Shown here: one piece after another, positions 22,337 to 31,020 of the stretch
How the letters are laid out: the number at the start of each line of letters is the position of its first letter
Position numbering within the stretch: the stretch's first letter is position 1
Assembly: GCA_038858525.1 (NCBI GenBank)
Contig: JAWCFL010000012.1
Location: 29,492-61,491, forward strand
DNA from: Candidatus Jordarchaeales archaeon
Lineage (GTDB): Archaea > Asgardarchaeota > Jordiarchaeia > Jordiarchaeales > Freyrarchaeaceae
Reading direction: 5' to 3'
DNA: 32,000 bases
Made by a program: the position numbers and the translations under genes
Notes under the pieces: model-generated
What the model saw: the letters and a program-made list of their open reading frames with translations, nothing else
Database searches by the model: none
What the model was told of the DNA's origin: nothing

Positions 22337-22430
22337 TGGAGCCCCGGCCGGGCTTTGAACCCGGGGCCTTCTCATTACCAGTGAGACGCTCTAACCAGGC
22401 TGAGCTTTCCCGCTAATGAGGCACCGGGGC
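22337..22430 (-). tRNA. tRNA-Thr(GGT) with a 16-nt intron at 8/9 (22407-22422); CCA encoded
   Basis: Spliced: GCCCCGG TA GCTC AGCCTGGTTA GAGC G TCTCA CTGGTAA TGAGA AGGCC CCGGG TTCAAAG CCCGG CCGGGGC T CCA. Confidence 0.9.
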
Positions 22431-30403: not shown

Positions 30404-30533
30404 GCCGGGGTAGCTTAGCTCAGGTAGTTGCTTAGCCTACAGCGCCGGGCTGTTAACCCGGTGGTCGCAGATCCCACTAAAAGGGAGCGGATGTTCGAGT
30501 TGGGATGCCACGAAAATCCTGCCCCCGGCGCCA
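30404..30533 (+). tRNA. tRNA-Asn(GTT) with three introns: 22/23 (30428-30440), 52/53 (30471-30492), 59/60 (30500-30516); CCA encoded
   Basis: Removing 13+22+17 nt gives a 78-nt cloverleaf with anticodon arm CCGGG CTGTTAA CCCGG and T arm GCAGG TTCGAGT CCTGC. Confidence 0.9.
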
Positions 30534-30682
30534 TCACCAAACCACACCGCTCCCACGTTCTCGTTTTTGCGTGAAAAACAAAGGCCAATTAAAATGGCTC
30601 ATACTGATTCTGATGTACCCGGATTTGTCATGGTCCTCTTTTAAAGGTTCATTTTGCATCTCGGGGCGTTTTTCAAAATGAG

Positions 30683-30824
30683 TGGTGCCTCGGCCGGGAT
30701 TTGAATTCCCTAGCACACCACAAGGATAGCTACCCGGGTCAAGGGGTCGATTAGGCGAGGTAAAGAACCCTCTAAGCCCCTTATGCTGTCAGCATATCCC
30801 TTGGCCGGGCTACACCACCGAGGC
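30683..30824 (-). tRNA. tRNA-Glu(TTC) with three introns: 20b/21 (30788-30801), 34/35 (30751-30773), 53/54 (30706-30732); CCA encoded
   Basis: Removing 14+23+27 nt gives GCCTCGG TG GTGT AGCCCGGCCAA GCAT A AGGGG CTTTCGA CCCCT TGAC CCGGG TTCAAAT CCCGG CCGAGGC A CCA (78 nt). Confidence 0.87.
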
Positions 30825-30852: not shown

Positions 30853-30859
30853 CTTAAAA
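30853..30859 (-). promoter_or_regulatory. Putative TATA box of tRNA-Glu
   Basis: TTTTAAG on the minus strand, 29-35 nt upstream of the tRNA. Confidence 0.5.
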
Positions 30860-31020
30860 GCTTTAGGGGGCTCCTCTCAAAGGAAATCTAAAAGAGAAAA
30901 AGCTTCAGAGAAACAATGGGCTAACAGGAAATCAGCCTAAAGAAAAACAGAATAGCGCTAAAACACACCCTCCCAAACCACACAATAAAGCAACAAGCAA
31001 AAAAGAAACGCGATATATAC

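Follow-up and report, generated by a model that had tools for sequence, protein, structure and literature searches.

Since 2007-2008, archaeal tRNAs have been known that carry as many as three BHB introns at non-canonical sites, and the pre-tRNA-Glu(UUC) of Pyrobaculum calidifontis, with three introns, is a stock example (Sugahara 2007/2008, as cited in PMC4390854 and PMC4090602). The list of intron positions in the latter includes both 20/21 and 53/54. Cleavage at relaxed versions of the splicing motif reportedly calls for an enzyme of the alpha-beta or epsilon type (PMC3241643, PMC4033280). Such introns in Aeropyrum pernix and C. symbiosum are cleaved by an alpha2-beta2 EndA by means of a Crenarchaea-specific loop, which in A. 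pernix is the stretch GQPLDVEKPRGADF and whose Lys44 (K44) confers broad substrate specificity (PMC3241643). In a different arrangement, the split tRNA-Glu of Nanoarchaeum equitans is assembled from two 5' halves (CUC and UUC) and one common 3' half, joined at 37/38 (PMC4090602). Among the Asgard archaea, the Jordarchaeia are the group named Freyarchaeia by Valentin-Alvarado et al. (PMC11291895). That study (2024) gives 92-95% of the tRNA genes of Freyarchaeia/Atabeyarchaeia as intron-bearing, often at non-canonical positions, with more than half having several introns and some up to four. tRNAs with several introns are the norm in this lineage (PMC11291895), and the phenomenon itself is already known.

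The window analysed here, a 32,000-nucleotide stretch of a Jordarchaeales contig whose DNA occurs in hot-spring metagenomes, contains a 142-nt gene that is very probably a functional, single-copy tRNA-Glu(UUC) of a Jordarchaeia/Freyarchaeia archaeon, with three short, protein-spliced introns of the BHB type at 20b/21, 34/35 and 53/54 (Table 1). A protein encoded nearby shares 82-86% identity with proteins of Candidatus Jordarchaeum / Jordarchaeia MAGs. An earlier note on this DNA had read the gene as a triple-intron tRNA-Glu(TTC), and all details of that reading are present, on the minus strand. The precursor begins with the acceptor strand GCCTCGG and ends in CCGAGGC-A-CCA. Excision of 14, 23 and 27 nt leaves 78 nt, for which ARAGORN returns a Glu(ttc) cloverleaf with a 7-bp acceptor stem, a D-arm GTGT/GCAT, a 4-nt variable loop, A73 and an encoded CCA, the anticodon arm being AGGGG-CTTTCGA-CCCCT and the T-arm CCGGG-TTCAAAT-CCCGG. 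The spliced sequence has the features of a tRNA-Glu(UUC), namely UUC in the 7-nt loop CUUUCGA above the 5-bp stem AGGGG/CCCCU, in a class I body of the Glu type. A BLAST search of the spliced sequence against its own genome matched exactly the four exon pieces, that of exon 1 at 100%. Comparison of the upstream sequences showed that the promoter-like element AAAG-CTTTTAAG is conserved in five orthologs, and transcription of the precursor would start from this TATA-like promoter about 30 nt upstream. A possible lengthening of the acceptor stem through the leader (TGGT with ACCA) was considered and rejected, as the pairing is not kept in orthologs. Separately, the 3' end of a convergent tRNA (…GCCCCCGGCGCCA) was observed 150 nt from the Glu gene.

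Table 1. Coordinates of the tRNA-Glu(UUC) gene and its parts, and of the other tRNA genes discussed (window positions unless a genome is named; G000 is the genome of the window).
Feature	Position	Strand	Remarks
Pre-tRNA-Glu(UUC), whole gene	30683..30824	minus	142 nt; 30824 is G1, 30683 the final A of the encoded CCA
Exon 1 (tRNA 1-20b)	30802..30824	minus	acceptor 5' strand, D-stem 5' strand, most of the D-loop
Intron 1, 14 nt, at 20b/21	30788..30801 (precursor 24-37)	minus	relaxed bulge-helix-loop motif
Exon 2 (tRNA 21-34)	30774..30787	minus	D-stem 3' strand, anticodon-stem 5' strand, C32 U33 U34
Intron 2, 23 nt, at 34/35 within the anticodon	30751..30773 (precursor 52-74)	minus	
Central helix of intron 2, GGGC with GCCT	30779-30776 with 30756-30753		
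Exon 3 (tRNA 35-53)	30733..30750	minus	U35 C36 G37 A38, anticodon-stem 3' strand, 4-nt variable loop, T-stem 5' strand
Intron 3, 27 nt, at 53/54	30706..30732 (precursor 93-119)	minus	
Exon 4 (tRNA 54-76)	30683..30705	minus	T-loop, T-stem 3' strand, acceptor 3' strand, A73, encoded CCA
Promoter-like element (BRE/TATA-like)	30853..30864	minus	29-40 nt upstream of G1; putative function
T-run immediately 3' of CCA	30675..30678	minus	likely transcription stop
Convergent tRNA 3' end	30404-30533	plus	
Partial Rfam tRNA match	22348-22406	minus	
Glu(CUC), genome of the window	G000 C1:94601-94739	minus	
Glu(UUC), closed genome (L046)	G006 C1:1790195-1790046		
Glu(CUC), closed genome (L047)	G006 C1:1545739-1545581		
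Glu gene, second family (L050)	G036 C5:1005-1145		
Glu gene, second family (L013)	G036 C9		
Glu gene, second family (L019)	G026		
Asp(GUC), genome of the window (L043)	G000 C1:75958-76115		orthologs L056-L059
Gln(CUG), genome of the window	G000 C4, about 83714-83826		

The introns were assessed by the archaeal rule, according to which a 4-bp central helix is followed on each strand by a 3-nt bulge and the cut falls behind the second bulge base. All three show such a helix and cut, intron 1 as a variant. In intron 2 the central helix GGGC/GCCT is paired at 4/4 positions, including one G-U pair, and is flanked by the bulges TT|A and AA|T; when the whole precursor is folded to its energy minimum, the helix-bulge-inner-stem motif forms in 5/5 orthologs. 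In intron 1 the strand CGGC (tRNA positions 17a-20) pairs with the intronic GCTG at 4/4 positions in all five orthologs, with bulges CA|A and AC|A. The 5' cut falls in a 10-nt loop and a single extra base lies opposite the 3' bulge, whose middle base (A-N|A) varies across orthologs as expected of an unpaired base. A one-base ambiguity of this junction is removed by one ortholog (G001), which has G, not A, as the first intron base, and by its sequence the intron is best classed as a bulge-helix-loop variant. Intron 3 has the central helix CCCG/AGGG with 3/4 pairs and one G-A mismatch, which is a perfect CCCG/CGGG in the ortholog from the other genus (G004), and bulges GG|T and AA|T. The most stable local fold, with the mature T-stem stacked on the intron hairpin, is favoured by 3-4 kcal/mol over the cleavable conformer; either the enzyme would capture this minor conformer or the order of intron removal would matter. 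Compared with the strict hBHBh' form, intron 2 combines a 4-bp inner stem (GAGG/CCTC) with an outer helix of only 1 bp, intron 1 lacks an inner stem, and intron 3 has both helices but short, with an inner stem AGC/GCT and a possible 3-bp outer helix TGA/TCA. All three motifs thus appear relaxed and would hence depend on a broad-specificity enzyme, whose activity we infer from the genes described below. The junctions and helices proposed earlier for the two outer introns are correct, and so are the junction, length, helices and bulges proposed for the middle one.

The position of the middle intron decides which anticodon the tRNA carries. Read without splicing, the loop is CTTAGAG and yields a false TAG anticodon, as had been pointed out beforehand. 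Across the whole window ARAGORN makes no tRNA call, and the Glu gene goes unmatched by the tRNA model of Rfam, even at E<=10 in a 501-nt sub-search; such silence on an unspliced gene of this kind is expected and is no evidence against it. ARAGORN leaves the unspliced gene uncalled and names it Glu(ttc) only with all three segments removed, whereas excision of two of the three gives nothing, or the wrong Ser(aga) or Val(gac). On the other hand, ARAGORN also accepts the cloverleaf left by an excision of equal length that is moved by 3 nt. It might accordingly be proposed that the intron sits at the canonical 37/38 site or in some other register, the anticodon being UAG here and CAU in a published 'Met CAT' gene, a call that tRNAscan-SE makes and that ARAGORN, which names the corresponding ortholog Met(cat), can reproduce. 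For several reasons set out below this seems very improbable. One is the body of the tRNA: the spliced 78-nt product aligns gap-free with intronless 78-nt tRNA-Glu genes of other Asgard archaea (66-70/78 identical, 85-90%), so that the body is Glu-like and colinear with intronless Glu genes, and the 4-nt variable loop indicates that it is not a tRNA-Leu.

The comparative evidence also bears on the register. A DNA search of 41 related genomes recovered full-length counterparts of the gene in four, three of them congeneric and the fourth from the same family. More widely, all of the order's Glu(UUC)/Glu(CUC) genes that were analysed (17/17) have an intron at 34/35. In the 16/16 genes that could be scored by the rule, GGGC is paired 4/4 with GCCT, GCCC or GTCC, the 3-nt bulges are in register as T(T/C)|N and AN|T, and the inner stem begins right after the 5' bulge. 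The 17th, the Glu(CUC) gene of G005, falls outside the scoring pattern and by eye has a GGGC/GCCC helix with bulges TC|A and AA|T. In a MAFFT alignment of 16 distinct genes the two-helix structure of intron 2 is paired in 94.3% of cells, and sliding the partners by 1-3 columns reduces this to 37-52%. The alignment contains 13 cells with compensatory changes on both sides, and 0/500 column shuffles match either that number or the covariation score; this shuffle count overstates the significance as the sequences are related, and the slid controls are the fairer comparison. Finally, the unspliced 'anticodon' varies by genome, being TAG, TAT, TTA or TTT in the UUC genes and CAA or CAT in the CUC genes, whereas that produced by splicing at 34/35 is invariably TTC or CTC. 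This contrast is the strongest argument against any other register.

The published annotation of a related genome shows the consequence. Supplementary Data 4 of PMC11291895 (tRNAscan-SE 2.0.12 -A plus R2DT) lists 38 Freyarchaeia tRNAs, among which there is no tRNA-Glu. One of the genomes in our set, G006, a closed sequence of 3,576,204 bp, has tRNA-Val(GAC) and tRNA-Thr(GGT) genes at the coordinates given there for 'SRVP_Freyarchaeota_curated_circular'. Its Glu(UUC) ortholog is missing from the table, and the coordinates of its Glu(CUC) ortholog are exactly those of entry 31, 'Met CAT'. The source of the 'CAT' is the unspliced reading GGGGCT-CAT-G, with 16 nt removed three bases further on. 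A comparison of 'Met CAT' with 'Glu CTC' by ARAGORN is uninformative by itself, as each register yields a cloverleaf named by its own anticodon. The decision for Glu over Met comes instead from the helix register, with the central helix of this gene paired at 1/4 positions (hand count) in the 'Met CAT' register as against 4/4 at 34/35, together with the constancy of the spliced anticodon across orthologs and a body of the Glu type. Moreover, under the 'Met CAT' type of reading these genomes would have no tRNA-Glu whatever. The expectation in the earlier note that scanners would miss or misassign the gene is thus borne out on both counts, by the failure of ARAGORN and Rfam to find it and by a table that lacks Glu and carries the Glu(CUC) ortholog under another name.

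Having favoured a tRNA-Glu with its middle intron at 34/35, one could still ask whether the gene is alive. Three interruptions in 78 nt resemble damage. The sole RNA library with the locus, metatranscriptome X14 (available as contigs only), has unspliced pieces over 30681-30771 together with both flanks and no joints; as it may contain DNA, it counts neither for nor against splicing. The gene might be a decaying pseudogene, with a functional Glu(UUC) located in the unassembled 7% of the genome, the MAG being 92.7% complete. The pattern of conservation speaks against this. The four exons are letter-for-letter identical (100%) in the window and its four relatives, hence in five genomes of two genera, while the three introns are 44-86% identical and the flanks also diverge. 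Intron lengths across these genomes are 14/14/15/13/17 nt for intron 1, 23/28/26/21/18 nt for intron 2 and 27/28/30/17/18 nt for intron 3; in the five genes, introns 1 and 3 retain their central helices but have variable loops. The promoter-like element is conserved, as noted above, and the intron helices are maintained by compensatory changes. The same architecture also occurs in the closed genome, here given in round figures as 3.58 Mb, in which no other Glu gene is listed or found. Decay of this gene is therefore a most unlikely explanation, and we retain the reading of a functional tRNA-Glu(UUC). The check suggested earlier, of whether it is the only Glu(TTC), found no other in the MAG, so that 'only copy' here means the only one found in a 92.7%-complete assembly.

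The genome also encodes a plausible splicing machinery. There are two genes of the EndA family, in the regions C3:81835-82089 and C43:5978-6235 of G000. The 191-aa product has its best match in the catalytic alpha subunit of A. pernix (3p1z_B, E 1.6e-48) and keeps both the histidine motif GPGIDHAP and the lysine of SVRKKF; in addition, its Lys-rich GQPLGIRKPKTPQF is aligned, at the level of sequence, with the A. pernix stretch GQPLDVEKPRGADF. The 198-aa paralog aligns with the EndA of M. jannaschii and has Ala at the catalytic His position, as would be expected of a structural beta subunit. RtcB is encoded as well (601 bits). It is a reasonable inference that these subunits form an alpha2-beta2 EndA which tolerates relaxed motifs. 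The cuts of this endonuclease would fall two nucleotides 3' of every 4-bp central helix, and ligation of the four exons by RtcB would yield the 78-nt tRNA with the loop CU-UUC-GA. At the middle intron, tRNA positions 29-32 would pair with the 3' portion of the intron to form the central helix, and by virtue of this use of positions 29-32 the anticodon stem would have to open for cleavage. The wobble base U34 would lie in the 5' bulge, with no anticodon existing before ligation.

A different mode of removal may be considered, such as self-splicing or cleavage by a nuclease other than EndA with joining other than by RtcB, or even retention of the inserts as expansion segments, given that two of the three motifs are relaxed and that cleavage is here read from sequence. 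Self-splicing group I and group II introns need some 200 nt or more for their catalytic core and its conserved domains. Inserts of 14-27 nt are far too short for either, and no Rfam intron family matches the region, even at E<=10. All three introns show the 4-bp helix with cuts two nucleotides 3' on both strands, which corresponds to the ruler of EndA, and the EndA subunits and RtcB are present. Inserts that were retained would destroy the D-loop, the anticodon and the T-arm. Such alternatives thus have very little to recommend them, and removal by EndA and RtcB remains our preferred reading.

The distribution of these introns provides some clues regarding their history. The second Glu gene of the genome, Glu(CUC), is likewise interrupted three times, by introns at 34/35, 53/54 and a D-loop site of about 17/17a, the last unlike that of the UUC gene. 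It has a 3' end CTA without an encoded CCA, a layout shared by its orthologs in the four relatives. In a soil genus of the same order the Glu(UUC) genes (L006, L007, L014, L017, L046) keep the 34/35 intron, their D-loop intron lies one base over (21/22), and the third intron is at 59/60 rather than 53/54, with a perfect central helix TTCG/CGAA. To judge from the sequences, the shifted D-loop intron and the 59/60 site look like intron sliding or turnover between the two families. Outside the order, Glu genes are intronless or have a canonical intron in most of the Asgard genomes sampled. However, a second Asgard family (f15) has the 34/35 intron in the Glu(CUC) genes of G036 and G026 and in the Glu(UUC) gene of G036, with the same layout (GGCC/GGTC, bulges T(T/C)|A and A(C/T)|T). 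This points to either an old intron or repeated insertion at the same site. In all, the 34/35 intron is found in 20 Glu genes, 17 in the order and 3 in the second family, spanning three Asgard families, with covariation demonstrated for 16 of them. As a further observation, the second-family genes have an additional T-loop intron.

Several other tRNA genes of the genome appear to be interrupted in comparable ways. With introns allowed, ARAGORN finds only 11 tRNAs in the 2.09-Mb genome, several of them with implausible introns of 100-320 nt, and the true tRNA set of this genome is almost entirely hidden by non-canonical introns. The tRNA-Asp(GUC) gene apparently has four introns, in the D-loop and at 32/33, 37/38 and 53/54, which leave a 5-nt micro-exon TGTCA containing the anticodon; the central helix at 32/33 is paired at 3/4 positions by hand count. 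Its 15-nt intron at 37/38 is present in G000 and G002 and absent in G001 and G003, implying gain or loss within the genus. A tRNA-Gln(CUG) gene, uncalled by ARAGORN, has two short inserts, in the D-loop and the T-arm. Within the window the sole Rfam tRNA match is a partial one (model positions 9-63), at a segment that reads as a tRNA-Thr(GGT) with an insert near its 5' end.

The value of these observations is mainly practical, in the area of annotation. An intron within the anticodon causes gene finders to drop the gene or to read a false anticodon, and Asgard genomes of this class accordingly seem to be without tRNA-Glu; the correction matters for tables of tRNA complements, analyses of codon usage and claims of 'missing tRNAs' in Asgard archaea. 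More generally, introns of the archaeal splicing endonuclease can sit between anticodon nucleotides and persist across deep divergences, a point of relevance to the dispute about whether introns were gained or retained in the closest lineage to eukaryotes. One might go further and speculate that the 34/35 intron, rather than being a recent and neutral insertion, is an old, selectively kept feature of Asgard tRNA-Glu that keeps the anticodon unformed until splicing, for example by gating modification of the wobble U34 or decoding competence, or by shielding the gene from integrating elements, but we regard this whole reading as unlikely.

Against the described systems, the 34/35 position finds no mention in the available text of the literature searched, whose list of intron positions ends in 'etc.', and no description of the position or its conservation is found in the accessible text of PMC11291895. 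The Freyarchaeia of that study are the same class of organism as the host of this gene. Within these sources, the 34/35 site, its conservation in both Glu isoacceptors of the order and the second family, and the gap and mislabel in the catalogue seem to be undescribed. The closest parallel, the Glu(UUC) of P. calidifontis, is the same isoacceptor with the same number of short BHB or relaxed-BHB introns at non-canonical sites, and its host has an endonuclease of the alpha-beta type, like the one proposed here. Unlike the multi-intron tRNAs of Thermoproteales, the present gene belongs to the Asgard archaea rather than the Thermoproteota, has no 37/38 intron and has one intron between bases 34 and 35. 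The D-loop intron of the A. pernix pre-tRNA-Thr and the bulge-helix-loop intron of the C. symbiosum pre-tRNA-Tyr are also relaxed and outside the anticodon loop (PMC3241643), the likeness between the enzymes being that of the aligned loop in the Asgard EndA. The Glu pair of N. equitans is reminiscent of the pair described here in that the distinguishing base 34 lies just upstream of the BHB junction and the downstream sequences are identical between the isoacceptors. It differs in that the Asgard archaeon has two complete cis-spliced genes at separate loci, joined at 34/35 rather than 37/38 and without trans-splicing.
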